A stretch of DNA of 52,459 nucleotides, filler included, from Sphacelaria rigidula (GCA_964200075.2; 4 parts of 4 records of this genome joined end to end with filler, not necessarily neighbours in it); one strand, 5' to 3'; shown: positions 6,801 to 52,459, numbered from the whole stretch's first letter. The notes: a model not told the origin generated them from the sequence alone. Translations and numbers: made by a program.

Positions 6801-9800
6801 CCCAATATTCTGAGTACTAAATTTACGACCTTCTGAATGCCCGGGTATCGGGAATATTATACCCGACACAGCCTTGTTAAGTTTGCAAGGGCAGGTCGAG
6901 TAGAGTATACTCAACACTCAGTATTTTCGAAGAGTCATACTCTGAGCACTCAAATTTCGAGTCGAGTATTCAAGGCCCTACTCAATCTACCCAAAAATTG
7001 AGTGGAGTTTTGAGGTCATACCCGATGATACTCTATTCTCAAGAATTCCCGAGGGTGCTTGCTCAATATTTCAGTAGAGTATTATTGGAGGTCGTACTTG
7101 ATCTACTCAAAATTTGAGTGGAGTATTTGAGGCCGTACTCGACCTCCTCAAACTTTGTGTAGACTATTTGAGGTCATATTCAATCTACTCAAAATTTGAG
7201 TGGAGTACTTGAGATCATACTCAATGTACCCAAAATTTGAGTAGAGTTTTTGAGGTCACACACAATCTACACGAAACTTGGGTAGAGTATTTGAGACCGG
7301 ACGCGATGTACCACCGCTGACTCTCCCATGGAGGAGTCACATGTGCGGCCAGTAGAGTCGCTCATTTTGATAACACCTACCCGACTACCCGTCTACTCGA
7401 TTACTCAATGATGATGAGTAGCGCCCTTTACTGAAAGTGATCTCGAAGGGGTTGAAAGATATCGAGTATGTACTGCCATGGGTGGGGGCAGGTGAGCTGG
7501 GGCAGGTAGGTTCATTCACCTGCACGCTTTGTTTTTTTATGGCCATCATCCGCTCATACTCATTGTAGCCCGTGGCGTACCGCCAATCATGTAATTGATG
7601 GCCATCGTTCACGCATGTATTCAACATATGCTGTGAAGTGACGTCACGCAGTCGCCGACGGTCACGGTCACTCATCATACCCAAGTGATTCTCTATACTC
7701 GAGTGTTACTGAGAGTGCTTACTCAACATTTGAGAAGAGTGTTGGAGGCCGTTTTCGATCTGCTCAAATTTTGAGTAGAGTATTTGAGGCCGTACTCAAT
7801 CTACCCAAAAATTGAGTAGAGTATTTGAAGCGATACTCAATCTAGTCAAAATTGAGTAGAGTAGTGGAGGTCGTACTCGATCTGCTCCAAAATTGAGTCG
7901 AGTATTTGAGGCCGTACTCAACCTACCCAAAATTTGAGTAGAGTGTTTGAGGCCTCACTCGGACCTACTCAAAATTTGAGTTCAAAAGTTCATGCTCTAC
8001 TTGACCTGCCCTTGACAGTTTGTATGCACGGTGCAAAATCAGCAGTAATAACTATCATGGAATGCAGCTAAGAAAATGTGACATGCATGCAACATCAGCA
8101 CATGCTGAAGGTATGCCAGCTTTGAGGTAACGCGAACGTACGAGTACTGCGAAAGCACAGATATGAGGTATTTCGAGCGTCCATCAGCAGTAGTGGTTGC
8201 CAATGCCAATGTCCATCACTTGCAGAAGTATGGAAACATGCACCCGACAAGAAGGCTCGGCGAAGCCGTAACACAGACTTGGTCAACTGGGTCGATATCA
8301 ATTAGACATTCTTCCGAACAAATTTCGATACAAATGCTCGACACTCGCCTGTTCATGTGAATCGGCTTGTTTGTTGGGTCCCTTGAGAACTTTGGGCGAT
8401 CTGAAGGGACGTCGCGAAAGAAGGGTGAAAAAATGAAAGTAAATGGCATGTGCTTCTATAGTAGATTATGGTTGGAATATACTCAGGCTATATGTCTAGA
8501 CGGACGAAAAAACAGCAAAAGAAAACAAAGATTGACCCCATAATGACTCGAGCTCGGGCACAAACAAAAAACACACCAAAACCACACAAATGCCTTCTTG
8601 TGGAAGTGGTGCTCAGTTCGGGACGAGACACAGTCCCATCGGAGGCAGAAAATATCTTCGCGCTACAAAAACCGTGAGTGATGGATGTTACACCTTCACA
8701 ACCGATCACAAGCAAAAACACGCAGACATCCGCACCATACGCGCATTGCGTCTAGCGCTAGCTCGTAGTCGTCTACTGTACACACAGTGGTGTGTCTCTA
8801 AGCCAATCCATTCAGTACTGGAAGGAAAGCGGCCGTGTGTGTGCTAAAATAGTTGCGTACGATACAGCCATTGACCGTTCGGGTGTGTCAGACGACACTC
8901 GTATGACAGAAGAAATAGTACCTCAATCAATTTCGAACTATGTGATCCAAGCCAAGGACGGCTGATCAACACCTGCGGCTCGAGCCATGCAGTATCATTG
9001 CGCCGCTTCTTCTGTTCTGTTTCAAGCAAACGCGTTTGCCAATAGACCAGTTCAATCTTTGATATTTCACGAATAATCGTTGCGAAAAAATATCCGGCAA
9101 GCACCAAAAAAATAATACGCATCTTCTTCTTCAGGGGGTGGGGGGTGTTATCGGGGCGACCGATCACCACGCATTATATGGACGCTTTTGTCGTGAGCTC
9201 ATATGTCTCATCCCGGAAAAGACAAAGCCCTACGGGGTTGAGAGTTCGAAGTGCCTGCTTGTGTACGCATCACGCATATGGCTCCAATCGACGCCCCCGG
9301 CGCTGATTCGAGCTCTGCCAACGTACACTTTGTTTGGAGCATCCTCTGTTCCCCCCCTCGTCTGGGGGTTCTCGGTCGGCCTTGGCTTGGGGTTTGGGTT
9401 CGGCTCATCCGTCGGGCTGGACAGGAACAAGGCATGTTCAACCCCTTGAGTGGGATCCCCCGTAGATGGACTGGTGTAATTTTGACTGTGGTCAGTATTC
9501 ACATGAACAGGCGAATGCTGAGCGCTTGCGAATAAGTTTGTGCAGGAGAGCCTCTAGATGGTTCCGAGTCAAGCCAGGCCCATGTGCGCTTGCACTAAAC
9601 TCTTCTCACGGAGCACATCCTTTCATACATGGGGTAACTTAACTCAGGTTAACTCGAGTCACTCTTTTCCCCGCACCTCACCTGAGTCACGGCAACATTA
9701 CTCAGCGGCACCTACTCCGATTTGGTGAGGTATACAACAAGACTCACTTCGCGTTGCAGATTCCGATCTGGTGAATTATAGAACAAAACTCAGTGGTGCA

Positions 9801-11073
9801 TATCCTGACCGGGTGATCTTTAGAGCACAACTCAGCGGTGCATATGCTGGTCGGGTGAGTTATAGAACATAACCCAGCGGTGCATATTCTGGCCGGGTGA
9901 GTCATACAAAATCACTCATCGATGCATGTTTGGTGAGGTGAGTTATACAGCATAACCCAGCGGTGCATATTCCGGTCGAGCGACTTGTATAGCATATCCA
10001 TCGGTGACATTTTTGGTGAGGTGAGATTTAGAACGACACTCAGCACATTCTGGCCGGTGAGTTATACAACATACTGAGTTAATTCACGAGTTATCCGACG
10101 TGTATATCCTTTCATGCTTCGTAATTTGGTGCACACTGCTGGCCACTACTGCTTCGATCGAGGCATCAAATATCTTTAGGCCATGCTTTCGCAAGCTTGT
10201 ACGCTCGGTGTAGTGGACAACGTTGGCATACCTCGAGCATGTTTTTTTGCTGCCGTACTGTACATGTAGAGCTTATTCAGCAGCGGCGAAATACTTGAAA
10301 AGTAAAATGAACGGATCGGGATGTTTTCGCTCTCCACTGCACGCAATCTACGCCTTACAGAAGCATAATTCAGTACGTGACTAGAGCACCGTGCACGGGA
10401 CACAACGAGCTAACGGGGCACACAGTAGGTGTATCGTGCTCCCTTGACAGCACAGCATGTACAACTGTATTCGTAGTGGTACAGAGAGCAGACACACACG
10501 ATCCATTCTCTTCACGTGTCGTGCTGCATCGTGGGCGACAGAGAGTAACACGCGATCTCTGCTGTTCTCCAGCGCTATGTGATTAATAATATGAATGCCG
10601 TGTACGGACCAGGGGGTCAGTCAAAGTGCGACAATCAATCAGTCGCATCACGGACGGACTGCTTGATCTCCCCCATTGGAGATCCTGTCATGATACATAT
10701 CGGAACACAAAATTTGAAATCTGAAATGTTCGTCTGTCTGTGGACTATACAATTGGACACACACAGGACAGCAGCATGTTCAGCATATGTCCGCCGTGGC
10801 TTGACTCGGCCATTGACCCTATGCCTCTCCACATGCATCATCATGGCCGGAATGATATGTTGTGCTCGTTCACACCACAAGTGCGATATCGCACCGAAGA
10901 GGTAACCGTGCTGCACTGTCTCTTGTGCGCTGTGCGGTGAATGAACCATAGAAAGGGTGTCTGCCCGCATGATAGCGTGGGCAAGGCGATCTGAAACGTA
11001 CCTCGAGTTGATACGGCCGAAAATTCTCATGACCCCATTTAATCTTCAGGCATTGGGTAAGCTCGCTTTCCAT
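843..11073 (-). CDS. RecQ/WRN-family ATP-dependent DNA helicase, 5' part (exons 11073-11002, 3701-3614, 919-843); 3' part runs off the contig
   Basis: Three exons with GT-AG ends and matching phases (0, 1) splice to MESELTQCLKIKWGHENFRPYQLE-VIQASLAGRDAFVLMSTGSGKSVCYQLPA-VIRRREQAKGPVTVVVSPLLSLMEDQ. This contains RecQ motif 0 (GHxxFRPxQ), Walker A (TGSGKSxCYQLP) and motif Ia (VVSPLxSLMEDQ). Confidence 0.92.
1821..2170 (+). mobile_element. tRNA-derived SINE (family 1, copy a)
   Basis: A-box TGGCTCACTTGG, B-box GGTTCAAACC and a CA-rich tail. Aligns over ~350 bp with 26931-27298. Possible TSD CACAAACTC on both sides. Confidence 0.75.
5625..6876. mobile_element. Related, more degenerate element in inverted orientation; left end unclear
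   Basis: Similar ~40-bp repeats; ends ...CACAGCCTTG. Segment 6113-6246 aligns with the reverse complement of ~7598-7732. Confidence 0.6.
6886..8014. mobile_element. Non-autonomous hAT-like element with ~40-bp subterminal tandem repeats
   Basis: TIRs CAAGGGCAGGTCGAGTAGAG / CTCTACTTGACCTGCCCTTG (one mismatch). The 8-bp flanks TAAGTTTG / ACAGTTTG fit a degenerate TSD. Arrays of TACTCAATCTACCCAAAATTTGAGTAGAGTATTTGAGGCCG lie at both ends. Confidence 0.75.
9628..10102. mobile_element. Non-autonomous TIR element with ~9 internal 39-40-bp tandem repeats
   Basis: Imperfect TIRs CATGGGGTAACT / AGTTATCCGACGTG with TA flanks. Unit is approximately ACTCAGCGGTGCATATTCTGGCCGGGTGAGTTATAGAACA. Confidence 0.6.
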
Positions 11074-25778: not shown

Positions 25779-25809
<31 letters not shown>

Positions 25810-25962
25810 ACCCAGTCCCCCCCCGACAGGAAACGGACAACCTCACGCCAGCAGNNNNNNNNNNTTCGTATCGCCGATCAAACCCAGGGCCCGACGGTTG
25901 CCCTCGTATGTAGTCTCCAGCCCCCCCCGACTAATTTGAAGCCCCCCCCCCCCCCCCCTCCA

Positions 25963-27559: not shown

Positions 27560-29040
27560 TACCATTTCCGAGCCCTATGAATGGTATTTCGTCTTGATTT
27601 CCTCCTATCTCCTTCCATACTTTCTACACTTCTCCATCCCACCATAGTCCAGCCCACCCTTTTGTACTTTTCTTCCATACAGTCCCATCAACTATAGCTG
27701 GCAATCTCTTTCTCTGCATGCTCTGTACGCTATATTGTCATCGCAGTTTCCTCATGTCTCTGTTTGTTTTAAGTGAGTGCATTCCCAACTCTGCTCTCAA
27801 AGCTGTATTACTCTTCGTTTTCGAGCATCCCAGTATCTTCTTTGCTGCTGCCATCTGTACTGTTTCCAGCCTCTTCACCAACTTCGCCTTCCCCTCCCAT
27901 ACCTCTCCTGCATATTCCAGCTTGGTACGATCACGTTCATCAGGACACCTCTCTTGATCCTAGGGTCTAGGTGCGAGTCTCTGAGAATCACGTCCATCCT
28001 TCCTATCTGTGCCTTACCCTTTTCTTTTACTTTGTTCATGTGTGCATCCCAAGAACAGTTTCTTGAGATCTATACGCCAAGGTATGTATGCTGGTCTACG
28101 ATCGGCAATTATTTCTACTCGATTCGTATTCTTCTTATCTTCCCCGTGTTGCCCAGTGGTATCATCCGGTTGACCTGCTTTTCCTACCCTAGCATTAAAA
28201 TCTTCCACCAACATTACTCCTCCTTGCCTTTTATACTTATGTACATCTGCTGCTATCTCTCAAAACCTCAGCTGTATGTTTTTCACTCTACTCCTCGATT
28301 CTGGAGGCATGTAGATTTTCTCTACGAAGAAGTCCTTCGTTCCCCGCTCTCCGGGTACCCCTATCTACATATGCTCTCGTCAAATTTCGTGCCGTCGATG
28401 AATTCTAAGCTGTCACGTAGGTATTCCTTTACTAAGAATCCTACTGTCCCCGCTCCCCTGCTCTAGGGCTTCTGTCCCTTCCGCTTTTTTCATATCCATG
28501 CGTACTCTTCAACTTTGCATCTCATTTCTGCCATGACTCTTGGATTCCTACTAATATACCTAGGTCGCGTTTACCTACTTGTTGCGCTATATCTCTTCTC
28601 TTTTGCGCTCGTCTGTGACAAATCGACACACGTTCCACGATCCTATTAAGTTCCTTTCCGAATCATTATCTGCCCTCCTGTTGTCTACTGTTCTATCTCC
28701 GTCGCGTCTATTCCTACTTTCCCTTGCTTGGTTGTTCTTCCCGTTTCTGGGTTGATCTTTGTCCATTTGCTTCGGGCCGCTATGTCCCCTCTCCTTCCCC
28801 TTCGGGGCACATACCTGCTTCTGCCTCTCTCCCTTGTTTTACCCGTGGACTACGTCCTAGGTTTATTGTTCCCTTAGTTGTGCATACTGTCCAACCTATT
28901 CTTCTAACCCATGCCGGCATCTTACTTGTCTCTATCCTTTCCCACTCCTTGCTCGCGCTCTGTTTTGGTGTGACTCGAAAGTGTTTCCCCCCCCCTTCTT
29001 TTCCCTTTTGCCAAATAGTATAATCCAACGCCATTGCATT
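27560..29040 (-). mobile_element. Decayed LINE (non-LTR retrotransposon): ORF1 remnant, APE endonuclease and RT C-terminal region, internally deleted
   Basis: Minus-strand translations with stops and frameshifts: VGFLVKEY and MLVEDFNARVGKA (GDFNA motif of APE), then IVDQHTYLGV*ISRNCSWDAH...KRLETVQMAAAKKILGCSKTKSNTALRAELG (post-RT thumb region). Confidence 0.85.
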
Positions 29041-29049
29041 CCCTTTTAA

Positions 29050-29151
29050 CCCTTAGACCGCGGTGCGGGTAGTCCATCTGGATCGCGCACACTTTTTTCA
29101 AGTGAAATTTGATGCCGATTCAGCAAGTGACCTACCCTCGCGCTCTAAGGG
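29050..29151. mobile_element. piggyBac-type MITE
   Basis: CCCTTAGACCGCG...CGCGCTCTAAGGG, flanks TTAA/TTGA; close to the 15330 copy in sequence. Confidence 0.8.
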
Positions 29152-30552
29152 TTGAACTCTAGTTCTCGTTATATGTCGCCACGAACTCCGGATACCAGCA
29201 CTACCAGTATATATTACCCGTGAGTGATGCTACGGTAGGGTTGCACTTTTTGAGCGAAAATGTTCCTCGGGGTGTTGCACGGATCATTCTGAGAATCGGC
29301 ATCATTTTCACTCGAAAAAGACTGAAAATGATGCCGATACACGAAAAGGCCCCTGTGTGCATCTCCATGTCTGTCCCCGGAGATTTGGGTTGCACAGTAA
29401 GCCCCCCATATATTTCGGCTCCTACAAAAACGAGACCCAGAAACCAAAAGTGCAACCCCTGTTGTAGCATTGCTCTCGTCCACTCTTTACTTCTCCATCC
29501 GCCCTTCCTTACCGTCTCTCTCGATCTCTTTTGAAGAATCTCCAGCTTAATCGATTCGAGTGTATTGGTGGGATGTAGTCAACGTACTGGGACATCCCAA
29601 TCCTTGTACTTGTTGGGGTTCTGGTGCCTTTTAATTCTTCTGTGCGCTCACCGACACTAAATAATGCCCCCAGTGCGGGCTCGTAGCCTGAAACCAAATT
29701 CAACACCTTTGACACAAATCCCCCCAGCGGGGGCGCGCGGGGGGGTGTACTCATGATATTGCGTGCCATAGTCATGAGAATATTGACCCCGCATCCCTAC
29801 AAAGCCGGGACGGAGCACGCCGGGTTCTCGCCGGACCAGGTTCGCAATCATGGGGGGGGGAGGGGGGGGGTGCTCATTTGTCGCACGCCTCAGTCATTGA
29901 TCATTGACCACACATGCCTTGTGAGACGGAGCACCGTTCCTACTCCTGATTGAAACACGTCCAACATTCGAGGGCTCGCTGCGTGTCCCCCATACGTTAC
30001 ACGAGATCCCTTTCATATGTTACCTCCTTCCTGTTTCGCCGCTTGTTGCTACCATTTATCTCCTGGGGTAACTACTGTATTGTGTTCTCGCCGCTGTCCA
30101 ACATAGTATAGCAAACGAGCTCATGTCTCTTCGCTTGCTCCCCACATTTCCCCCTGTAACACGCCCCATTTCTCCTTGCATAATTCACATGCTGCCACTG
30201 TATGTGTTCTACTCTCTATTGCTTGCCACAGGGGCGACTGTGTGCAACTCCTTCCTCCTCCACCCGACTGCTGGTATACCTCTTTCTTCTTTTTGGTAGG
30301 TCCAGGCCCCCCACCCGAAATCGCACTTTCATTTTTTTCGCAGAGTCCACTGGGCCGTGCAGATATGTTTCATCCCCTCTCTCAATCCCCCGTAAATCTC
30401 TCGGTGTTCTTCCTCGTCCACTTTCCATGTTAGCGGTTGTTTTTTGTCTATCGCTGTGAACTGCAGACCAACCTGGCCATGCACGCTCTGTAGCTGAAAT
30501 ACAAAATTAACGAAACATACATATGAGCTCAACGACGGAATCAGATTTGGCG

Positions 30553-30637
30553 AAAAAAAAAGGATATTTTATCGGGATTCGAACTCGTGACCGCTATAAC
30601 TCGATTCTCCCGTATCACTTAGATAACAGGGGCGCAG
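30553..30637 (-). mobile_element. Truncated tRNA-like SINE head inserted in the LINE
   Basis: Reverse complement contains a B-box GAGTTCGAATCCC followed by a T-run. No full cloverleaf. Confidence 0.4.
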
Positions 30638-31273
30638 CCGTGTCGCACAAAAAGTTCAACGCTGGGTCTAACTCTAGAAGTTTTTAGCCGACTTATACCC
30701 GGATCTTCTGCACGCAAGTACTAAATTCGTGGCGGGGGATGCCGCTGTTTCTTTCCACGGAGTCATGACATTTCAAATCACTCTGATTTTTTTTTTTTTT
30801 TCCCTTTACATACCCGAAGATGAGGAACGAGTCGACAATGTCGTGTTCAAAATTCAACTCCTAACTCCTCCAATGAAGCTCCGCGTCACGCGATTACCGA
30901 CAAAAACACCATCAATCAGCTGGCCCAGCTCGTACAAGTACCGCCCATTTTTTCATGGTCGCTATCACCCTCTATTATTCCCTGATGTATGCTTGCGCCT
31001 TTTGTGTGTGTTTCTGCAATCGTGCTGGTGTTCATGATATTCCCACTAAAGAATCACCTACGAACATCAGCCCCGATATCGTCTCTCCTCTTTCCTTGAC
31101 TCCTTGTTTTGCTCTTCCTACTGCCACCATGTCACCTATAAACCGGTTAAATAGAGTGGGTGATGACGTACATTCTTGCGCAAGTCCTTGTTTGTTGTAA
31201 ATATGAAGATATACCCCGATGCTTCCCAGTCCAGCGTCATAGCACTTCTCGCACACTGCCATACATTTCACCA

Positions 31274-31383
31274 CACGGGTGGCCACTGGGGTGCCTGCGA
31301 CCTCAAATTTGGACGTTACAGACCTTATGCAACCTTTGTAACGTCCAAATTTGAGGTTGCAGGCACCCCAGTGGCCACCCGTG
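31274..31383. mobile_element. Hairpin MITE (47-bp arms, 16-nt loop), CACTA-like termini
   Basis: CACGGGTGGCCACTGGGGTGCCTGC...GTTACA and its reverse complement with one mismatch; 2-bp TSD CA. It interrupts the LINE RT reading frame. Confidence 0.88.
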
Positions 31384-34300
31384 CATTATCCACATTCTCC
31401 CTAGCTCCGATCCCAGTTTCCCACGACTTTTTCGCCCATTTCTCCATAATAATATACTGTTACATAGGCGTTCAGTATGTCTAGAAAGAAACAGCACGTT
31501 GTTATAGCCCCGCGTCTTTCCTATCCAGAATAACCCTACCTACCTAACGTGTACATGTGGTCCACACAGCTATTATATAGTAATATGGTTTGGTCTAAAT
31601 CCTGCTTACCCTTCGCTGATATCCTCTTACTTCTCCAGAATGCTACCACGGTGCTCCGTAGCAATATCCCTCTATAATTCCCTGGGTCAGCCTTGGCCTA
31701 TTCAAGGGAAGTAGTGCCATACTTGGAATGGCGATTGTCGGAGGGAACTCGGTGAGGGAACCGATCTTCATAAATACCACCAGAAGTCTTGAAATTACTC
31801 ACGAAAGCCTAGGATTTAAAAACTCGTACGCCCGTTGCACGACCGGCAAACTGGTGTATCCTGGCGACGTATTCGTGACCTCCAACCAAAAATTATTGCC
31901 CTGCGTAACCCGAAGGCCGTAGTCCCTTCATCAACTTATTATGGAACGTATTCTGAGGGGGGCATACTACTGTAGTGTCAACATGCATGCCCACCTCCCG
32001 CTGGTGCATAAAATAGGTGTACCGTATAGTGCTTATGGGAGTACTGTATACGCGAGCTGGTTCGATCACGCTCATCATCCGAAATTGTGTCATTATATAG
32101 CAAGTAATGTGTGCATTTCGCAATATCTATACCCGATAGCGGCATACATGGTACCATACTAACCGCCATGAACAATTAAAAAAGAGCGTGACATAGCCGG
32201 ATTGTTGTTCAAGGCTATAGGGTTGGCGCGAAGGGCGAACAAATATCTCGACCGATCAGCGACCTTCAGATTGTTCTAAACTCAAAGATAGGAATGATCG
32301 AAATTTTCCCAATCTCCACATTATTTCAAGTCGCAGTAACCATCAGCTCGCAAATCTCTTGATACAACATATATATTTGAAACCGGTGACCATAGGATCG
32401 AACTACTATCATATATCCAATTAAAACCGTGGCATTTCGGTGATGTGGGGATTTGGCATTGTCGGATTTGCATCGATCAACCCACCGTCGAAAATATTTA
32501 AAAAAATCCTCCGCTCTTTACCGGCTATGGGGGGTCCAGGCGTAGAGACCCCCGGAAGCTGGTACAGAAGTCCTCAAAACAAAGGACAAGAAGAGCTGTA
32601 AGCGTCCCGGAGTAGTTCGAGGAACATTTTTGCACAAAATATGTTTTCATACAAAAAAAAACGTGTAGGAGTTGAACATTTCAAGTTCACTTCATCGCAC
32701 CAAAGCGGAGTGAATGTTCACGCCAAATGTCGCAGTGGAGGATGGTCCATCTCCACGTCGCATACTTTTTGCAAGCAAAATTAATGCCAATCCAACAGCG
32801 ATGACCTACTCTCGCCGTCTACGGCTCAAGACACTGAAACCTACACATACTGTTATTGTATGGGTAAAAAATCGAAACTTTTGGTGGATGGGATTTTCCG
32901 ATTTTCGTTTCACCAGTCATCGGGGATCGCTGAAGGACTTACTATTGGTTGAGGACTGATGCCCCATTCTCAATGCCCCCGAAGAGGGCCCTGTCTTATC
33001 AAGACCGAAAAAGAATCATAGAAGGAAACAAGCGTCCAAAAGCAGCATGTTGGTTGGTGGCCGCAACAATAGACCCGTTGGGCGGCCAATCAACGTGCTG
33101 CTTCTGGACGCGTGTTCCTTTTCTCGATTCTTTTTTGTCTCACCTAAAATACAGGGCCAAATTTACTCACAAAAACTGATCATTGTGAAACTGAAAAGCG
33201 TGAGAACGGAGGAACAATCTGATGAGAACACAAAAGGGACGCGAAATGGTTGCCACGAGTGGGCTGTTCGGCCCTTCATGGGGTGCACAGCTGTTTTCCC
33301 ATCATCCGCATGAGCCAAGCGTGCAATGCACACCCAGCCGACATGCACACAAGTCTCATTGAGAGATTTAACGAATAGGGGACTTGTTCATGCCCAGACC
33401 CATCATTCCTGTGCTGTAGCTGAGACGGTCGTCCGGTGCGTTTGGACCCTATGTTCTGAATGTTGCTATGTCCCGGTCGGTGCGCAAGTAACCTAGACAC
33501 AGCCGAAAACGTCATCATGGTGCGACGTATTCGATGCGTTGTGTTGTTTGTAAAACCAGCAACAACGCGCTTCGTCGTGCATTGTCGTGCGCCCGCCTCG
33601 CAGTCATGAAATTTTCGTGTCAAAGTTGTCTTTACGAACATGGTTTGATCTGCGCTGGATCGAGATTGCAGGCAGTTCCTGTCTGTGTGGTACGGCATGT
33701 ACAGAACTGGAATGAGAACAAACTGCTGTCGACACAAAGTTGGAAAAGTCACGTGATGGGTCGCAGCATGCCTTCTTTAGGTGCTGTTGTGTATAAGTGC
33801 GCAACTCCTAGATCACGCAAACTCAATGAGCAACTAGCTCCAAGAGTATGCCATAAATGCTGAGGAGTGTCTTTTTTCTCATGTCCATTCAAAATCGCGG
33901 CAGGCAGAAACTGCAATTTTTCACGAGTAAAAAAATTAACGGCTACCAAAGAGCCCGTCTAAGACGCGACCTAAAACTCGGAGAATCGGCGCGAACATTT
34001 GCGGATAAGAATTCTGGGTGATGGGCGCGTGAGCCAGCTCGTAGCACACACACCCCACGAATATCTCCCGAAGAAAAACGCAACCCCCCGAAACCACCGA
34101 ATTTCAACTCCAGGGGTGTGGGCGTGAGCGGCAACTCATAAACAAAAAAAGCCACTGGCCGGTACAGACGTACGGACGAAAGGATATGCGGTGCGAGTAC
34201 ACTGTACATGTTCTAGCGGCAAAACCGGGATATTTCGTTCTCCTTCTCGGTGACATTCTACTCACAGTTCTGTTTGTACCCATCTATGCTGTTGTAGAGC

Positions 34301-39255: not shown

Positions 39256-39297
<42 letters not shown>

Positions 39298-43300: not shown

Positions 43301-45859
43301 TTTCTTTCATCAACCCCGCCGTAGACTCTGTGCAAGCATAGTGGGAGAACCTACACAGCCATGCCCATGGGCGTGTCATGCACCAGCGGGGGTTGGTGAG
43401 TACATGGATAGTGTATCTCGCGTAATCATTTGTTGCATGTCGATGGTGCGTGTACCATCGACAAATGAAGACATATTTTTCATGCCCACACTCCAACATC
43501 CGCGCAAAGAAACGACGAAGCCCACCCCAAGCCCTGGTAGCGTAATAATCCCATCTAGGATTTTTGGGAAAACGATGGAGACGACGGCAACACGGGTCGA
43601 CCAAGAAACACTAGGGCAGTTACAGCATGCGTAGCGGAGTGGATCACTCCCGACAACCAAACCGTCGGCGGACATCCGAGCCCACCCCAACCTGCACGAC
43701 CCTCCATTGATTGCTACGTAAGTTTGGAAAATAGCACCAGTGGGCTTACTGGCGTGCTCCGCATCTATCTAGTCAACCTATCACAGCGTGCTGCCCCACG
43801 TCGACACATGCCGCAAACATCAGCACGATCGAGTCCTTTGACACCTACATCACTACATCCCAAGCCGATTTATGATTTCACCATGCTTGCTGTCCACCTG
43901 ACCCTTGTCCGGGGACGTGTGTACGGGCATGTGCACTTTGGACCGCCGTAGTAGGCCTGTCCAGACGTTGACGATGGGGACGTTGGGCACGGAGATTACC
44001 GGAAACGTTCCTGGCAAACTGGGGTGATGTCCACAGAAAAGGACATCGAAACTGCAAGACACAGTAAGAACCGATATTTTGACTGTGAGGATGATAGATT
44101 CATGGTACAGAATGTGAGTATCGCGGTATCACAATGGCACACGTCGTGCGGTACATTCGCGGTTACATCAAGATTTTGTGGTTTCTGCGGTAATGACAAA
44201 CCTCGGTGTCCTACCGCGGAAATCGTGGTTTTTTGCATGCGCATGCCTAACCTACAGCTGCAGTGGAACGTAATGCCGGTATTCATGTAGGCGTTGTAAG
44301 GGAGTGAGTAGATTGTAACCCCGATAGTCATCGTGTAGACACAAATATATATGCAGGCAATGTACAAAACTTTCGCAGGGCTATGCCCCTGTTTTCAAAT
44401 GGTGTAGCAATAGAGCATCGATTGAAGCTGGTGGGTGCTGGTGCTATTGAGGATCTGGGGCCTCGACAGCACCGTGTTGGCCGAATGTACCAGTACATTT
44501 ATTCTCCGGCTACTACCGACCTTATCACATTTGCGGAGGGCGAGTGACCAAGCCGGTAACGACCGATTACCACCACGTTCATGTCTTCAACTTTCAGGGA
44601 AGGCGTGTGCACTCCCTAATGCCCCTGCACTCAACAGCGTGATAAGAGCAGCTCTAACTTTCGATGGTCAAGGTTGGTTTCTCTGGGTGTCCAGTCTAGA
44701 TGCTAGGAGAGAGACGGACTGATTCCTTGAGACAACGGACTCTTCCCGAGGGAGGCGAGGTGCTGGAAGTTCGACGGGAAATGAACGCACGTTTTTTCGT
44801 CCCTTGACCCAAGTGCTGAAATTCATCGGGCAGTCCCCGGCCTTCCTTGGGTTCATACTGCCACATGCCAAGAAGCTGGAACAACATCAGGAACCCCACT
44901 GATGCGACGACTGAAGGATGCCTCAATGGCCGAATTTCACTTCGCCCTACTACTCGTGCCTGCCCCCTCAAACTATGGCTGGCAGCTTGGGGTAGGGGGC
45001 ATGAGCTGCTGGCAACTTCCGTGCGCACACTGACGAGACATGGATTCCGCTGGCACCTAATCTCTATAGTCTTCAGTTTGCAGCAGCTGTCATGAAGCTC
45101 TGGGTCACTTATGGAATCAAAATGATGGAAATCAAAGCAAAGGATTGTGTTTGAAGCTCCCCACTTGACACGACGAATATAATATTTCCCTGTTTTTGTT
45201 TGGCAACAGTACCTGTCCACCATAAGAAACATGTTCGCCGAAAAGAGCCAAGGAAAACGACATATGTCGGACGAAATATTTCAACAAGCTCCGGAGAATC
45301 CAGCGATATATGAGCAAATATCCCTGACACAGCAACCACCATGGCTCACATTCCACCCAGTTCGTGTGTAGTCGTGCGTCATATCTCACACAGGGCAACA
45401 CCATACCACTCTGGAACAACATGCAAAGGGAACAGTCTACAAGGGATGGGTGGTAACTCAGTAAGTCCTTCAGAATGTGTGGAGCGTATACAGCGAAACT
45501 TGATACTATGTTCAAGAACACGAAAAGCTCTGAAATATCGTTCACATAAAGTCCGTATAGACGCTACTACAGCGACAGTGTGAGACAACGTTCCCTTCAC
45601 AGCTAATGGATGTATGCTCCTTCTCGGCCTGTCATCATTTGTGACCCGCTGCCACCAACAACAGCCGTTGCTGCTCTGGCGCCGTTCTGATCGTTCCAAC
45701 GTGTGGTGTGACATATCGGCATACTGATGGAAGTTCTGTATGTAGGACTGCGCTGCACTGTGCTATACTGCTCTGCTGTGACCAATACTGTATGGGATAT
45801 CAGCCGCACCGACTACAGTAAAGGGCATGCGATGCTGTAGTTAGATTCGTTGCTAGTAC

Positions 45860-46290
45860 CATGGAAACAGTGCGGCTTAAATTTTACCGAATCCAGGCCG
45901 TTTTCGGTCGAATTTTGACGAATGTTACCTGTTATCATTTTGAACGTTAACGACATGATATCATGCTTTGAGACGAGGCGAAGGTGTGGTCTTCCAATGA
46001 TGAAGCGAAAACGAAAAGCCATTTTTGCACATTCGTGCGTTTTTCGCCATTTTGCCGGGTTTCCATTTTCCCGCCCCTTTTTCCGGAAGAGGGGGAAAAA
46101 TGGCCATTTTCGGGCCGACTGCTTGAGTTTCGGCCGCTGCCCATGCAGGAGGTGGCGTGAAAACACAGCAAAACTGGGTCCAACTTGAGAAATGACAAGG
46201 ATTTCAAAGGTATCCTCTCTAACGGCATCGGACAAGGTTGAGGGCCCGTGTAAACCTAGCCTACTTTACTTCTGTGTTGCAGGAAGTACA
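45860..46290 (+). repeat. Copy of the 17690-18165 dispersed repeat
   Basis: Colinear similarity over ~430 bp. Confidence 0.75.
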
Positions 46291-47888
46291 AGCTCTTGTG
46301 AGACCCATCTCATAGATGGTAAAACGTTGTGTCGTATCAGTACAAAAGCATGAAAAAATATGAAGTTACGGTGGGCTTATAGTTTCTTTCCACGCCGCTG
46401 CGCAGCTGATAAAGCCTGGTGAAATATCACCAAATCGTTTCCCTGCAGTGCATCTCGGAGTCGCTGTTTCCACCTAGGGTGGTTTTGTGGTTGGACAGCG
46501 CATGCCGACGATGTTTGGGATAGCCCTGCTGTTTTGCGCAACGCAAAAGGCCCAGCAGGAAGATGAAAACAAAACCCCGTCCCTCGCCATGCACCTGCAG
46601 ATGCCTTCGCACGCCGGCGCGCATCTGTTGAAACTTTTCCCACCGGTACCGATGCAAGGCCCTTGTTCCTATCGTGCGTCTGGGCGTTGTCGTAGCATAT
46701 GGTGCCGTGTAGATCAAGTGTGCATCGAAACGAGCACAGTAGATGTGGTTGCCGTATTTCTCTTTATTCGAACCCATCGTCTGGTTTCTATTTTATTTGT
46801 GGCCTCGGCCACGGTGGCATGTCGTTCAATGTTCGGGAGGAAACCACAATTTCTCAACGAACGGGGACTGGAACGTCGCCGAAATGTCCACAGAGGCCGC
46901 ATATTGACGCTAGTAGCACAAAGTCGTCCGGGTGCGTCTTCACTCAGCGGGTTCAAGTCATGGCACAACTGTCGGGCACATCCTTGCTGGTGTAATTGCA
47001 TGTCGATACCGTTCGAAATTTGTTCTTCACCGTCATTTTTTCTTCGGTGTTTCCGACGAAGATGTACAACTGCGTCTATGTAGAGGGCTTACACAGCCAC
47101 CGCAAAGACACCTGCGGTGCATGAAGTACCCGTCCGCTCCGACATGTCCCGTCCAATAATTCAACATCACCGTGACCCTTCCTCTATACCGTGATACAAC
47201 TCGTGCGTTTTTGCTGGTGCTCCTAAACATGGAAGCTGCATCACCCCCCCATGCGCGCCCGTTCAACTGTGTACCCCAAGTATGTTGCTCATGTGATGTT
47301 GCACAGCTATTGCTGATAAATGTCATCAGGTTCTTTGTTTTGCATATGGGTATCTAGCTGGCTCGTCCTGTGTGACCTGAAACCCTGAGTTGGTTACTTC
47401 GACATAATCAATGCGTCAGGTTTCTTTGATATGATTGGACATCCTCTGACATTAGCGTTGTGCTTCGCATGTTTTCTGGAACGTGATCATCGTGTCGTCG
47501 TACTATACGAATGTTTGATGCGCTTCCCTTCCCTGCTGCAACGATGTGGGGAACGTCCTATTCGATGAAATGATCTTACGACTTGGGATCAGCTTACATG
47601 AGGCGTCATCAAAATTAATGAGATAGGTGCTTTTTTTCCAGAGTATGTGGAGCAATAACACGGCCGTTTGTTCTTCAAAGCGTTCAGATCACCCATGGCT
47701 CACGAGGCATTTTTCGTTTGTCTTGGTATCTGTGCTAACGTAAGCAGTACGGCTTTGGACGAGCGCTATCGAAGAAGCTGACGGCCGACGTCGCGGGCGA
47801 ATAGTGCATCAACAAGCGCTGCTCCAAGCCATCTCAAGGTGCACAGGGTTACGAGGCGGGGTTCCGCTTCGAGTACAGTAGGGCCGGA

Positions 47889-50630
47889 ATGTTGGATGTG
47901 AACAAGAGACAGCTGTGCAGTGACGGGGGCTGCTCGGACAGGCCATCGTATGGTGTAGCGGGAAGCACGAAGGCGGGGTTCTGCTCAAAGCATGCCAAGA
48001 CAGGAATGGTGAAAGTGAAGAACGGGACGTGCGGCTACGAGAGCTGCTCCATGTCACCGTCGTATGGCGTGGCGGGGAGCACGAATGTGGAGTTCTGTTC
48101 GAAGCATGCCAGGACAGGAGTGGTGAATATAAGGGACAAGAAGTGCTGCTACGAGGGCTGTTCCACGCATCCGTCGTACGGTATGGCGGGAGGCAAAAAG
48201 GCGGAGTTCTGTTCGAAGCATGCCGGGGCGGGGATGGTGAATGTAAAGAAGAAGACGTGCGGCTACGAGGACTGCTCCACGCAGCCGTCGTATGGTGTGG
48301 CGGGAGGGAGAAAAGCGGAGTTCTGTTCGAAGCATGCCAGGACCGGGATGGTGAATGTGAAGAAGAACACGTGCGGCTACGAGGGCTGTTCCTCGTATCC
48401 CTCGTATGGTGTGGTGGGAGGTAAAAACGCGGAGTTCTGTTCGAAGCATGCCCGGACGGGAATGATGGATGTAAGGAACAAGAAGTGTGGCTACGAGGGC
48501 TGTTCCTCGTATCCGTCGTATGGTGTGGCGGGAAGCACGAAGGCGGTATTCTGTCTCAAGCACGCCAGGATGGGAATGGTGAACGTGGTGAGCAAGAAGT
48601 GCGGCCACGAGGGCTGCTTCTCGCACCCGTCGTATGGGGTACCTGGAATGAAAAAAGCGGAGTTCTGTTCCAAGCATGCCAGGGCGGGGATGGTGAATGT
48701 AAGGAAGAAAACATGCGGCTCCGAGGGCTGTTCCTCGCATGCGTCGTATGGTGTAGCGGGAAGCACAAAAACGGAGTTCTGTTCCAAGCATGCCTGGACG
48801 GGAATGGTGAATGTGCAGAACAAGATGTGCGGCTACGAGGGCTGCCCCTCGCAGCCGTCTTATGGGATAGCGGGAAGCACGAAGGCGGAGTTCTGTTCCA
48901 AGCATGCCTGGACAGGAATGGTGAATGTGAAGTACAAGAAGTGCGGCTACGAGAGCTGCTCCTTGCAGGCGTCGTATGGGGTGTCGGGGAGCACGAAGGC
49001 GGAGTTCTGTTCCAAGCATGCCGGGGCGGGTATGGTGAATGTGAAGAAGAACACGTGCGGCTACGAGGGCTGCTCCACGAAACCGTCATATGGGGTGTCG
49101 GGGAGCACGAAGGCGGAGTTCTGTTCCAAGCATGCCGGGGCGGGTATGGTGAATGTGAAGAAGAACACGTGCGGCTACGAGGGCTGCTCCACGAAACCGT
49201 CATATGGTGTAGCGGGAAGCACAAAGGCGGAGTTCTGTTCCAAGCATGCCTGGACAGGAATGGTGAATGTGAAGTACAAGAAGTGCGGCTCCAAGGGCTG
49301 CTCCTCGCAGCCGTCGCATGGGATAGCGGGAAGCACGAAGGCAACATTCTGTTCCGAGCATGCCTGGACAGGAATGGTGAATGTGAAGTACAAGAAGTGC
49401 GGCTACGAGGGCTGCTCCTTGCAGCCGCCGTATGGGGTTGCGGGAAGCACGAAGGCAACATTCTGTTCCAAGCATGCCGGGGCGGGTATGGTGAATGTGA
49501 AGGACAAGAAGTGCGGCTGCGAGGGCTGCTCAAAGCAGGCGTCGTATGGTGTAGCGGGAAGCATGAAGGCGGAGCTCTGTTTCGAGCACGCCAGGGCGGG
49601 AATGGTGAATGTAAAGAGCATGGCGTGCGGCTCCGAGGGCTGCTCCACGCAGGCGTCGTATGGTGTGACGGGAAGCACGGAGACGGAACTCTGTCCCAAG
49701 CATGCTAGGACGGGCATGGTGAATGAAGGGGGAAAGATGTGCCCCTACGAGGGCTGCCTCACGTCTTCGTGCTCGGAGGTAACGGGAAGAGAAAAGGCGG
49801 AGTTATCTTCCAAGCACGCCAGCGCGGGAATGGTGGATGTAAAGAAGTGCGGCTACGAGGGGTGCCCCGTGTGTCCGTCGTGTGGTGTGGCGGGACGCCG
49901 AAGGGCGGATTTCTGTTCCAAGCACACCAAGGCGGGAATGGTGCGTCGGGTGCCCAAGAGGTGCAAAGAAGAGGGGTGCTTCAAATCAACTCCCGACGAG
50001 AAGCACAACGTTGATGAAGCGACGCGACAGCTTGTTGATGCACGCACCACAGCCGCGGTACTCGACACTACGGAACTCAACACTGGAGAGGGCTTTCGCG
50101 ACCGTAGCCCGACGAAGGGTAGTGCAGCAAACGTTGCTAATGTACGAGGAGCAAAGCGCAAGCGCGCAGCATTGTCGGGGCCTGTTGTGAACGACGATGT
50201 TGGTGCTCCCCGTAGTGTGTGCGTCCGTCCTGGGCAGGGTGTGAGAACACCGTTGCTTCCGGGAAACTCACCTTTGCTCTTGGGATACCCACCTTCGAGG
50301 GCTTATGGCAAGGAATCTTTGGGAGCACGAGCAGAAGCAGGATTGAAAGTGGAGATGACAGGCCTTTCTCCTACACACGATGGCGACGGGGTGAGAAAGT
50401 GTCGCGAGCAGGCTGTCCGTTCGATTGGTCGGACTAGCGAACGTGGTTGTGGTGGCTTCACCAGCAGTGGTGGTGGGAGTACGGGACTGCTCTGGGGTTC
50501 GTTGCAAGTGATTCCTGGACATCAGGGCGCATGTGATGATGTGGCTTTCGAAGGTGCACAGGAGGATCGGAACGTGAAGTTGGAGCTCGACGTATCTAGT
50601 CCTTCTCCCCAAACGTCCGATACATGGTAG
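47889..50630 (+). CDS. EsV-1-7 cysteine-rich tandem-repeat protein (913 aa; 18 repeats plus a partial one, then a low-complexity C-terminal tail)
   Basis: Uninterrupted 2742-bp ORF. Repeat consensus CGYEGCSxxPSYGVAGSTKAEFCSKHAxxGMVNVKxKx (C-X4-C-X16-C-X2-H, GMV(N/D)V linker) is the pattern of the EsV-1-7 family known from brown algae and phaeoviruses. The true start may lie in an upstream exon. Confidence 0.9.
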   Translation: MLDVNKRQLCSDGGCSDRPSYGVAGSTKAGFCSKHAKTGMVKVKNGTCGYESCSMSPSYGVAGSTNVEFCSKHARTGVVNIRDKKCCYEGCSTHPSYGMAGGKKAEFCSKHAGAGMVNVKKKTCGYEDCSTQPSYGVAGGRKAEFCSKHARTGMVNVKKNTCGYEGCSSYPSYGVVGGKNAEFCSKHARTGMMDVRNKKCGYEGCSSYPSYGVAGSTKAVFCLKHARMGMVNVVSKKCGHEGCFSHPSYGVPGMKKAEFCSKHARAGMVNVRKKTCGSEGCSSHASYGVAGSTKTEFCSKHAWTGMVNVQNKMCGYEGCPSQPSYGIAGSTKAEFCSKHAWTGMVNVKYKKCGYESCSLQASYGVSGSTKAEFCSKHAGAGMVNVKKNTCGYEGCSTKPSYGVSGSTKAEFCSKHAGAGMVNVKKNTCGYEGCSTKPSYGVAGSTKAEFCSKHAWTGMVNVKYKKCGSKGCSSQPSHGIAGSTKATFCSEHAWTGMVNVKYKKCGYEGCSLQPPYGVAGSTKATFCSKHAGAGMVNVKDKKCGCEGCSKQASYGVAGSMKAELCFEHARAGMVNVKSMACGSEGCSTQASYGVTGSTETELCPKHARTGMVNEGGKMCPYEGCLTSSCSEVTGREKAELSSKHASAGMVDVKKCGYEGCPVCPSCGVAGRRRADFCSKHTKAGMVRRVPKRCKEEGCFKSTPDEKHNVDEATRQLVDARTTAAVLDTTELNTGEGFRDRSPTKGSAANVANVRGAKRKRAALSGPVVNDDVGAPRSVCVRPGQGVRTPLLPGNSPLLLGYPPSRAYGKESLGARAEAGLKVEMTGLSPTHDGDGVRKCREQAVRSIGRTSERGCGGFTSSGGGSTGLLWGSLQVIPGHQGACDDVAFEGAQEDRNVKLELDVSSPSPQTSDTW
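47916..49961 (+). repeat. Coding tandem array of 114-bp units (18 copies)
   Basis: 38-codon periodicity visible in DNA and protein. Unit 17 is degenerate (36 aa, third Cys lost). Confidence 0.95.
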
Positions 50631-51834
50631 ATGGCACCATTCTTCCCAACGATGCCGTTGCTCAGAGTGAGGAAGAATATGTCCGTGCGGACTCGCGTAT
50701 GTTGACACCGCAAACGACGGGTGGTCGGCACGGTGTTTTAGCTTCTGTTGATGCGAGCCGTTCGTGGGGTTTATGGGGTCCTGGTAGCAGGACTTTGCCA
50801 GATTGAGAATTTGGCATCCAATTGAGCATGAGAACTCAGAAAAATAGGAAATCCTGATCAACTCATCGAATGGAGACTGTTTAATAATACGTTCTGCGCC
50901 GAGCCAGGCAAGAAGCGGCTAAATGAAAGCTTCTACCCGTGCTATGCACCCCATGTATTTTCTGATTCCATTGGCGTCATCAGCCAGCAGAAATCTGAGT
51001 CCAGATTTCAAGAAAAAGGTGGATGTATACTTGAAACAGTTTCAGTTCTAAAATGCTCGTCGAATCTGTATACGCTCTCTGTACCAGCTTGCCACTGAAG
51101 CCTCTGATATCCCCGGGAAGGATCGCATCTGAAGCTGTGTGCACACGACGTTGTTCCCAGCATAACGCACACACGAAAAATGGATCAAGTCAGAGCCAAT
51201 CATAAACTTAGTTGTAATCAACGCTAGACTCTCAATCTGTCGAAACTCTCTTATATTCCAGTTCCGGATTCCACCAGAGACCGAGGCGCCGTTGTTGTAC
51301 TAGCGGTAACCGTGCCCTCCAGTTTCAAGTTGCCGAGGGCTGGTCGAAAGTGACGTCTATAGGAGTAGCCGGCGACCCGACGAATCGCGACCCCACTTTG
51401 ACTTGTAATTCGTATTTGTTCCCCACCTTGTTTGACTGATGGTGTAATGCGTGCAGTAACTTTGGTTCGCGTTCCACTGCAGCATCTGTACCCCCGAAAA
51501 AACGCGCGTGCGGCGCATTTCAGGTCTCAAAGAAATCCATGCATAAGAGGTTTTTCTGTCACAGTATGGGTATGGCGGATGGTACACCAGTCTTCGTGCT
51601 GTGATAATAGAAAGATGCTTCCTCTGTCCCATGAGTACAGTCCGTTATGGGGGATATAGGCCGTACCTCGCGGACGGAGGTGCTCACGGTGGTATGGTGA
51701 GGTTCGTGATAAATATTTAGTTGTGGAGATGACCACTGGAAAAAACAAGAAGAAAATAATCTACCCACAACCTTAGAATCGTTGGGTCAAGCATAGTCAA
51801 ATATCGACCAGATTTCGCCAATCTGTACATTGTG

Positions 51835-52200
51835 GGCCGAATTTCGACGAAACTAGCTTAGTTTGGAGTAATTGAAAGCTGCAATGTAAACGAGTGGTTT
51901 CGGACTTGGCGTAGCTATCTTATGCCAGCGATGAACAGGAGAAAAAAAGCCAGTTATACTTTTTTTTCGCGATTTTTGCCGTTTTTCGGGTTTCCAAGGT
52001 TCCTCTCCGTGTTATGGAAAAGGGGCGAAACATGGCCATTTCCGGGCCGACTGATCCTTTGTCGGCCATTCGCGCACGCCGGCTGCTGCGCAAACAGCAA
52101 GAAAAAAGACGCGATTCAACTAAAAAACCCCTGAAGATGAGAAAAATATATCGCCTACAGGCTGGGCCAGCCGACAGTGATTTTTGAATGTATTTTGGCG
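51835..52200 (+). repeat. More diverged copy of the 17690-18165 dispersed repeat
   Basis: Shares GGCCATTTCCGGGCCGACTGAT and TTCAACTAAAAAA...GAAGATGAGAAAAATAT segments. Confidence 0.6.
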
Positions 52201-52459
52201 ATGCTGTGGGTAGTTCGAAAAGTTGGGCGCTGAAAATTTGGCAACAGAATTTTATTATCACGACGCACAACATTGTCCGAGGTGCATTGAAAAAAACGAA
52301 AAACAGAGAGATGGAGCGATTTGAAGTTTCTGCAAAAACTAGAAAAATGCTGTAACTCGGTGGGAAAAAACAGAAGCACCTCCAGAAATAAGAGCCGATC
52401 CTAATTTTTGGGGTTGAAACATATAATGAGGTTGAAGTCCCATTTCTCCATTGTAGGGA

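Follow-up and report, generated by a model that had tools for sequence, protein, structure and literature searches.

A long EsV-1-7 array protein of Sphacelaria rigidula, with a constrained scaffold, a few fast positions and a possible role in DNA binding

The EsV-1-7 repeat is a unit of 38 amino acids (aa) with the spacing C-x4-C-x16-C-x2-H, and the protein family built on it is greatly expanded in brown algae: the accessible part of one study counts 2018 proteins, with up to 335 per species, and includes among them the Ectocarpus developmental regulator IMMEDIATE UPRIGHT (IMM), in which five repeats follow a unique N-terminal domain (10.1101/2024.02.19.579948). Here we analyze a stretch of 52,459 nucleotides from the brown alga Sphacelaria rigidula (GCA_964200075.2, four parts of four records joined end to end with filler; hereafter, the window), whose single long open reading frame (ORF) is intact and encodes an EsV-1-7 array protein of 913 aa. 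This protein is a long, functional member of the known family. It shares with the family the repeat, the ligand spacing and the 38-aa period, which is the spacing of 213 adjacent pairs among the 395 strict units of 88 long homologues. It differs in array length, with 18 units against 10 strict units or fewer in any of those homologues. Compared with IMM, the part of the window protein that lies outside the repeats is a C-terminal tail common only to a subfamily of paralogues.

The same unit and period are found in giant viruses, where the array is fused to a nuclease-like domain. Nucleotide identity within arrays is 0.78 in the viral set and 0.80 in the window; the window protein, however, lacks the nuclease-like domain and its gene lies in gene-poor host DNA. 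More distant likenesses are by analogy. Arrays of C2H2 fingers, such as those of KRAB-ZNF proteins, are also made of tandem small zinc modules with a conserved scaffold and a few fast positions, and they also combine a constant non-finger part with an array whose length varies among paralogues. In contrast, the window units are Cys3His rather than Cys2His2, are 38 aa long, show no recognition helix in our models and have no zf-C2H2 match in Pfam at E values up to 10. TALE and PPR proteins are similar in unit length (33-35 aa, against 38 aa) and in showing variation at fixed positions, but they are metal-free alpha-helical solenoids, whereas models of the window units contain strands only. By analogy, tandem zinc fingers would thus be a better counterpart than TALE or PPR proteins. 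An earlier note on this DNA, made from the sequence, had suggested that the array may be a programmable zinc-dependent DNA/RNA-binding scaffold in which each unit reads a base or a short motif through three variable slots, in parallel to TALE, PPR and C2H2 arrays. That interpretation is partly supported by the observations that follow.

Eighteen stretches of the protein match Pfam family PF19114 (EsV_1_7_cys), with 785.2 bits against a cut-off of 25 (E = 4.3e-243), and all 18 units match the family singly (best E = 2.8e-19). The strict spacing pattern occurs 17 times in the 18 units, and 15 consecutive spacings are exactly 38 aa. The count of eighteen tandem units given in the earlier note is thus confirmed, and the residue strings that it listed for its slots had all been read correctly. 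At the nucleotide level, Tandem Repeats Finder detects a period of 114 at 47942-49943 (17.6 copies, 81% matches, 0% indels, score 2115), and this is the sole array of that period in the window. The array is strongly charged (net +53, isoelectric point 9.2), with 15 of 16 units net positive. The coordinates of its parts are given in Table 1. The start of the ORF is the first ATG past the upstream stop, and the stop-to-stop frame opens at 47805. The nine residues that precede unit 1 resemble the M-V-N-V plus linker found before each unit, as if the protein opened with a partial linker.

Table 1. Parts of the EsV-1-7 array gene, in positions of the window
Feature	Position	Strand	Basis or remark
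Complete EsV-1-7 array protein (ORF, with stop)	47889..50630	+	ORF scan, Pfam, codon models, public record P0089
Nine N-terminal residues, MLDVNKRQL	47889..47915	+	read from sequence
Units 1-16, sixteen 114-nt (38-aa) EsV-1-7 units with Cys1, Cys6, Cys23 and His26 in each	47916..49739	+	exact register
Unit 17, degenerate; Ser for the third ligand Cys, linker shorter by one residue	49740..49850	+	
Unit 18, final complete unit, with diverged linker MVRRVPKR; register off by one residue	49851..49964	+	
Extra C-x4-C knuckle CKEEGC after unit 18, without the second half of a unit	49962..49979	+	
C-terminal tail, 220 aa, no Pfam family	49968..50627	+	kept among paralogues with shorter EsV-1-7 arrays
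Basic cluster KRKRAA in the tail, candidate nuclear localisation signal	50154..50171	+	KR[KT]RA in 12 of 17 aligned tails, which include fragments
Hydrophobic-K-x-E motif LKVEM in the tail	50343..50357	+	14 of 17 tails
Second hydrophobic-K-x-E motif VKLEL in the tail	50574..50588	+	12 of 17 tails

Further repeat frames are open for 321-407 aa at 48425-49708 on the plus strand and at 48054-49019 and 48556-49533 on the minus strand. Several frames of the unit are free of stops, so that in the array region an ORF carries no weight by its length alone.

A public record (P0089, 'unnamed protein product, partial [Sphacelaria rigidula]') is identical to the window protein over residues 382-879 except for a 14-aa gap and, judged by this identity, is the public model of the array gene. 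The next relative is 67% identical. The public model looks imperfect. The 14 residues that it omits fall within units 15 and 16 and correspond to a 42-nt stretch at 49596-49637 that begins with GC and ends with AG. In addition, the model ends at residue 879, while the frame continues to residue 913 (50526-50630) and the tails of paralogues align to the very end.

Sequencing runs X1-X3, whose labelling as RNA is a guess only, show no cover across most of 44000-47665 and have contigs on 47746-47958 and 49583-50875; a contig of 1293 letters from X1 is collinear with 49583-50875 and contains no other letters. Run X5 gives cover in every bin. Contig joints within the array look like repeat mis-joins. 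Variants between runs within the array comprise three non-synonymous changes (at unit positions 18, 9 and 8) and three synonymous ones; they are few and may derive from paralogues.

Entropy was computed at each position of units 1-16 to see how variation is distributed along the unit. The eight highest values are at 36 (2.43 bits), 9 (2.22), 8 (2.18), 28 (1.77), 38 (1.68), 3 (1.63), 35 (1.63) and 15 (1.50). The earlier note had placed the variation in three slots, namely the four residues that follow the second Cys (7-10), the pair 28/29 and the linker 35-38. This placement is roughly right. Four slot positions, 7, 10, 29 and 37, are however outside the hot set (14 of 16 units have Ser at position 7, and Pro and Ala alone occur at position 10), and two hot positions, 3 and 15, fall outside the slots. 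The hot set does not, then, consist of three clean slots. Concentration of the variation is nonetheless real. A codon model was fitted on an IQ-TREE tree of the 16 units (model M0: kappa 3.3; omega, the ratio of non-synonymous to synonymous rates, 0.39), and null data were simulated with one omega for all 22 family-variable positions, choosing the top eight positions post hoc in each simulation. Two omegas fit better than one with a likelihood-ratio test (LRT) value of 21.4, against a null 95th percentile of 15.3, and only 2 of the 150 simulated data sets gave as much. Variation in the array is therefore concentrated beyond what uniform constraint yields.

Selection differs between the two classes of positions. 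By maximum likelihood (ML), omega is 0.88 for positions 8, 9, 28, 29 and 35-38, a value that does not depart from neutrality (LRT 0.73, p = 0.39), and 1.03 for the eight positions of highest entropy. For the remaining 30 codons omega drops to 0.25 (LRT against neutrality 156, p = 7e-36), and family-variable positions outside the slots are also constrained (0.36, p = 3e-13). Single positions with omega above 1 are 8 (1.84), 9 (2.14, LRT 3.7), 36 (1.25) and 3 (1.18), none of them significant. The NG86 method gave an omega of 1.54 for the slots, against 0.88 by ML at the same sites, and the higher value is not upheld by ML. Between-unit synonymous divergence (dS) is about 0.43 and nucleotide identity averages 0.80 (range 0.67-0.94). 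With synonymous divergence this substantial at such a mean identity, the uniform scaffold reflects selection and not only recent duplication. The protein is clearly functional and its scaffold is under purifying selection, while the hot positions are unconstrained or mildly diversifying. The check by per-site entropy and dN/dS (the same ratio as omega) that the earlier note had suggested thus separates fast positions near 1 from a scaffold at 0.25, but it yields no significant diversifying selection. The same note had named neutral evolution of the slots as an outcome that would speak against its own reading, and an omega not significantly different from neutrality is what the slots of this array show. 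Side chains able to form hydrogen bonds make up 0.92 of the residues at hot positions and 0.64 at other variable positions.

When the family as a whole is considered, part of this picture is retained and part is not. In 209 unique in-register units, drawn from 61 of the 88 homologues, about 21 of the 38 positions vary freely and about 17 are kept: C1, G5, C6, P10, Y/F12, N/G13, G16, F/Y22, C23, H26, K/A27, G30, M31, V32, N/D33, V34 and K37. The near-invariant scaffold described in the earlier note is therefore real within this array, but much of it (CGYEGC, SYG, AEFCSKHA) is private to it. Variability was compared across sets as the mean amino-acid difference within arrays. Among 29 long homologous arrays, positions 9, 36 and 35 vary most, and the slots (0.60) hardly differ from other variable positions (0.58). 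In the 6 of 31 Sphacelaria paralogues that have at least four in-register units, the most variable positions are 9, 38, 36 and 37 (slots 0.54, others 0.32); for other brown algae, represented by 7 of 21 proteins, they are 35, 9, 2 and 36 (0.52 and 0.48).

Viral arrays offer an independent set. Thirteen distinct giant-virus arrays, with 255 unit pairs, have their highest proportions of non-synonymous difference (pN) at positions 9, 11, 36 and 24. The core slots, defined a priori, have an omega of 0.69 (confidence interval, CI, 0.53-0.92) against 0.54 (0.42-0.70) at other variable positions; the bootstrap CI for this contrast reaches 0, and 8 of the 13 arrays show the higher value in the slots. 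By NG86, omega is 1.88 at position 9 (CI 1.13-3.12), 1.54 at position 11 and 1.11 at position 36. An ML fit was made on 8 of the 13 arrays, five being left out for saturated or unstable fits. In this fit all positions stay at or below 0.26 except 9 (1.73, LRT 4.7, p = 0.03), 11 (1.26), 24 (0.92), 36 (0.92) and 29 (0.48). What EsV-1-7 arrays have in general is, therefore, a rigid scaffold in which positions 9 and 36, with some neighbours, are hot; these two positions are shared by the window and the viral arrays. Position 28 is hot in the lineage of the window array only, while 11 and 24 are hot in viruses and nearly fixed or mildly variable here. The three-slot layout, then, hardly extends to other arrays, even though position 9 and the linker 35-38, chiefly 36, do recur. 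At positions 8-9 the vocabulary is restricted, yet it is not like that of the repeat-variable diresidues (RVDs) of TALE proteins: 83 distinct pairs were found, of which six (KQ, TR, ST, KR, TQ and KI) account for 49% of 346 unique units.

The most informative hint at the ligand comes from the viral fusions. Of the 88 long homologues, 46 have a conserved domain C-terminal to the array, with invariant RPD, E-x-DE-x-x-H, two Arg and NPD; these homologues are found among P0002-P0086, and the viral loci are L002-L081. The domain is present in none of the named brown-alga proteins among the homologues. A scan of IMG/VR yielded at least 457 relatives of the domain, many of them on contigs named GVMAG. 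Of the fetched loci, 76 have the motif in an ORF, and in 60 of these the ORF also contains one or more EsV-1-7 units ahead of it (three or more in 43). Of 14 tails, one has a match to the Holliday-junction resolvase family Hjc of Pfam (E = 9e-4), and one of eight proteins matches PHROG 9084, 'homing endonuclease' (E = 0.006). In two homologues (P0027 and P0035) a single protein contains the array, the nuclease-like tail, DUF2769 and the Pfam 'Helicase associated domain' (PF03457). In the accessible text on the I-Bth0305I family, Vsr-like homing endonucleases have the catalytic residue set E-D-x-H-D, and the motif order of the viral domain fits that residue order (PMC3239194). Judged by sequence, the viral domain may bear a weak resemblance to Vsr or PD-(D/E)xK-type nucleases. 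Its repeated joining to the array is most simply explained if the array is a DNA-targeting module. This clue is indirect for the window protein: as it lacks the nuclease-like domain, its link to DNA runs through homology of the repeat only. The nucleic-acid binding proposed in the earlier note thus receives indirect support from the viral arrays, and the window protein itself does not share the domain that provides it.

A second lead is offered by the plant SBP DNA-binding domain, whose first zinc site has the spacing CX4CX16CX2H in the accessible text of one study (10.1101/2021.08.22.457055), identical to that of the EsV-1-7 unit. The SBP family of Pfam matches one unit over profile positions 1-35 with E = 0.032 and 15 bits, under the cut-off of 27, and the SBP profile run against single units matches 1 of 18 (E = 0.17). 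EsV-1-7 units, with four ligand residues each, differ from SBP in lacking its second site, CX2CX3HX11C, and no SBP structure appeared among the results of sequence and fold searches. The likeness, which is one of sequence, may be taken as a lead only. As a separate observation, homologue P0008 passes the cut-off of Pfam family Zf_WRKY19 (PF24906; 35.3 bits against 27), and P0119, P0127, P0170 and P0181 are also listed under this family, which is named after a land-plant protein. A link between the EsV-1-7 and Zf_WRKY19 repeat families is possible.

The C-terminal tail has no Pfam match. It is kept at 37-67% identity in 29 representatives (E <= 1e-3), with alignment to the last residues. Eight of the representatives are Sphacelaria rigidula proteins whose models have fewer strict units before the tail. 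Homologues of the tail were found among shorter proteins, and none among proteins of 502-1598 aa. The KRKRAA cluster is a candidate nuclear localisation signal, and the hydrophobic-K-x-E motifs resemble SUMO-acceptor sites. Transcription-factor families such as KRAB-ZNF have the same layout, in which a constant part is joined to arrays that differ in length.

Structural predictions were made with AlphaFold2. A model of units 7-12 has a predicted local distance difference test score (pLDDT) of 70 and a predicted template modelling score (pTM) of 0.28, and a model of two units with 81 aligned sequences reaches a pLDDT of 81 and a pTM of 0.52. In the modelled units, DSSP assigns short strands at positions 12-14 and 31-33, and the helical turns that it marks do not exceed three residues; placement of the units relative to each other is not confident. 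If the models are right, the array would resemble beads on a string and not a solenoid, and the parallel drawn in the earlier note with TALE and PPR proteins fails on both helices and inter-unit geometry. DSSP also detects isolated beta-bridges at position 38 of one unit and at position 9 of the next, at 2 of 5 junctions of the six-unit model and at the single junction of the two-unit model. As the Cys1-x4-Cys6 knuckle lies between the two bridge positions, these would be two arms of one hairpin, and such a hairpin would bring positions 36/38 of one unit beside 9/11 of the next. Covariation across unit junctions has a mean z of 3.3, against 2.8 in a same-unit control, a small difference.

An explanation that accommodates these observations is the following. 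An uninterrupted, functional host gene would encode a strongly basic poly-zinc-finger protein. Each 38-aa unit would most likely hold one zinc through Cys1, Cys6, Cys23 and His26, as their invariance suggests, and would form a small beta-rich bead with strands at 12-14 and 31-33, the 18 beads being flexibly joined. The array would most likely bind DNA in a multivalent manner, and the candidate contacts would be the fast positions on both arms of the Cys1-x4-Cys6 hairpin, that is, linker 35-38 and positions 8-11 of the next unit, chiefly 9 and 36. The 220-aa tail with its KRKR cluster would be the constant part of a paralogue subfamily with differing array lengths, and would probably provide nuclear import and an effector or partner surface. 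Taken as a whole, from poly-zinc-finger host gene to contacts and tail, this explanation is put forward tentatively, with a chance of being right that we place somewhat short of even. DNA binding by the array, taken singly, is plausible at about that level.

Several observations weigh against this explanation. Hot positions of the window array have omega values of 0.88-1.03, as expected of plain unconstrained surface loops, and the pair 28/29 is not hot in other arrays. The omega estimates are method-dependent, and the NG86 values of viral arrays are probably inflated too; besides, gene conversion among repeats breaks the single-tree assumption of codon models. The best structural matches, weak as they are, are RING and B-box fingers, which are mostly protein binders. 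For the viral C-terminal domain, no Pfam family passes the cut-off, a sequence search of the Protein Data Bank (PDB) gave no match, and hhalign against E. coli Vsr gave a probability of only 11.6% over 16 columns, with RPD placed on the RPDF stretch of Vsr. The window tail has neither the RPD...E-x-DE-x-x-H...NPD motif nor a Pfam match. Lastly, the literature searched, in its accessible parts, gives no ligand for the EsV-1-7 repeat, and no experiment or solved structure in it ties the repeat to DNA; likewise, no published ligand or nuclease link for EsV-1-7 was found there.

Other explanations must then be considered. The most serious is that the array is a protein-binding scaffold, in which RING- or B-box-like zinc modules recruit or multimerise partners, the loops contact partners or are simply tolerant, and the charge is due to association with the nucleus or chromatin, no bases being read. 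Among the fold searches, the weak RING and B-box matches favour this explanation. Foldseek gave no match with E below 1 for either model, sequence searches of solved structures with the whole protein, an 18-unit profile and a multi-unit family profile gave nothing relevant, and an ESM Atlas search gave no usable match. In a VIA wide search the six-unit model reached a best Z of 2.1 and the two-unit model a Z of up to 3.3, and the sole matches with Z of 2 or more were RING and B-box domains: the IDOL RING (Z 3.3, root-mean-square deviation 2.7 over 44 residues), MEX-3C (Z 2.9), BIRC7 (Z 2.8) and the TRIM5 B-box (Z 2.2). Statistical neutrality of the hot positions is also what a scaffold of this kind allows. 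However, Z values of 2-3.3 lie under what VIA calls meaningful, an EsV-1-7 unit has one four-ligand site while RING has two cross-braced sites, and recurrent fusion to a nuclease-like domain is expected of a DNA-targeting module and not of a protein adaptor. In the accessible part of one study, no other Pfam domain stands beside the repeat in Ectocarpus proteins (10.64898/2026.04.27.720984), which suits a protein scaffold. On balance we regard this explanation as rather unlikely.

Base-by-base reading, as in the code of the earlier note, would require each unit to recognize one base or a short motif through its variable residues, in the manner of TALE RVDs or C2H2 contacts. Such a code would account for a scaffold with hot positions, for a position 9 at or above neutrality in two independent sets (window 2.14, viral 1.73), for the moderately limited 8-9 vocabulary, and for arrays that differ in length while the attached tail or nuclease stays constant. 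The 83 distinct pairs are, however, far looser than the handful of RVDs that dominate TALE arrays. Which positions are hot depends on the lineage (28 in the window array, 11 and 24 in viruses), the models give no regular superhelix with confidence (pTM 0.28), and no member has a known target sequence. A code of this type seems quite unlikely.

We find it very unlikely that the array binds RNA, as CCCH fingers do. The Cys-Cys-Cys-His ligand set and the basic charge are compatible with RNA binding, but the spacing is unlike the classical C-x8-C-x5-C-x3-H of CCCH fingers, zf-CCCH is unmatched in Pfam at E values up to 10, and the few matches of the viral partner domain are to DNA nucleases. Finally, a decaying or neutrally drifting ORF without function, which stop-free tandem repeats easily produce and which the other open repeat frames might suggest, is extremely improbable and already disfavoured given an omega of 0.25 on 30 of 38 codons (LRT 156), ligand residues intact in 17 of 18 units and a non-repetitive tail kept among paralogues to its last residues.

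As to its surroundings, the array gene stands alone in gene-poor, host-like DNA and not in a dense viral insert. Long frames are otherwise few in the window; sixteen other ORFs were tested against Pfam, and none matched. No other EsV-1-7 units are present in the window (four loose pattern matches look like chance), and an Rfam search of the window gave no match. Additional features of the window include tandem arrays with units of 41-42 bp and higher-order periods of 81-122 bp at 5686-5831, 7062-7295, 7720-7981 and 9770-10025; poly-C runs of 46 bases at 25779-25824 and 41 bases at 39257-39297; and strand asymmetry at 28001-32000, with a GC skew of -0.20 and an AT skew of -0.25 and then -0.12. 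Summed contig depth of run X5 at 51614-52459 rises from about 27 to 1,080, 2,594 and 118,984 in the final three bins, which suggests a very high-copy repeat at the 3' end of the window.

According to the accessible parts of the literature, few gene families of brown algae have expanded as much as EsV-1-7. The array, the subfamily with a constant tail and the viral fusions together lead to a concrete DNA-binding hypothesis with candidate contacts at positions 9, 11, 36 and 38. A bolder version, which we consider quite improbable, is that EsV-1-7 arrays add one more natural modular scaffold for DNA recognition to those known, made of zinc beads in place of helical solenoids, in which the patch formed by 36/38 of one unit and 9/11 of the next contacts bases; giant viruses would direct a Vsr-like nuclease with it, and brown algae would have domesticated it with a constant nuclear tail as a large, fast-diversifying set of sequence-specific regulators, IMM included. 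If the DNA-binding hypothesis is wrong, the hot positions would be merely tolerant loops. If it is true, it would explain how the EsV-1-7 family regulates development, and could yield a new engineerable DNA-targeting scaffold.

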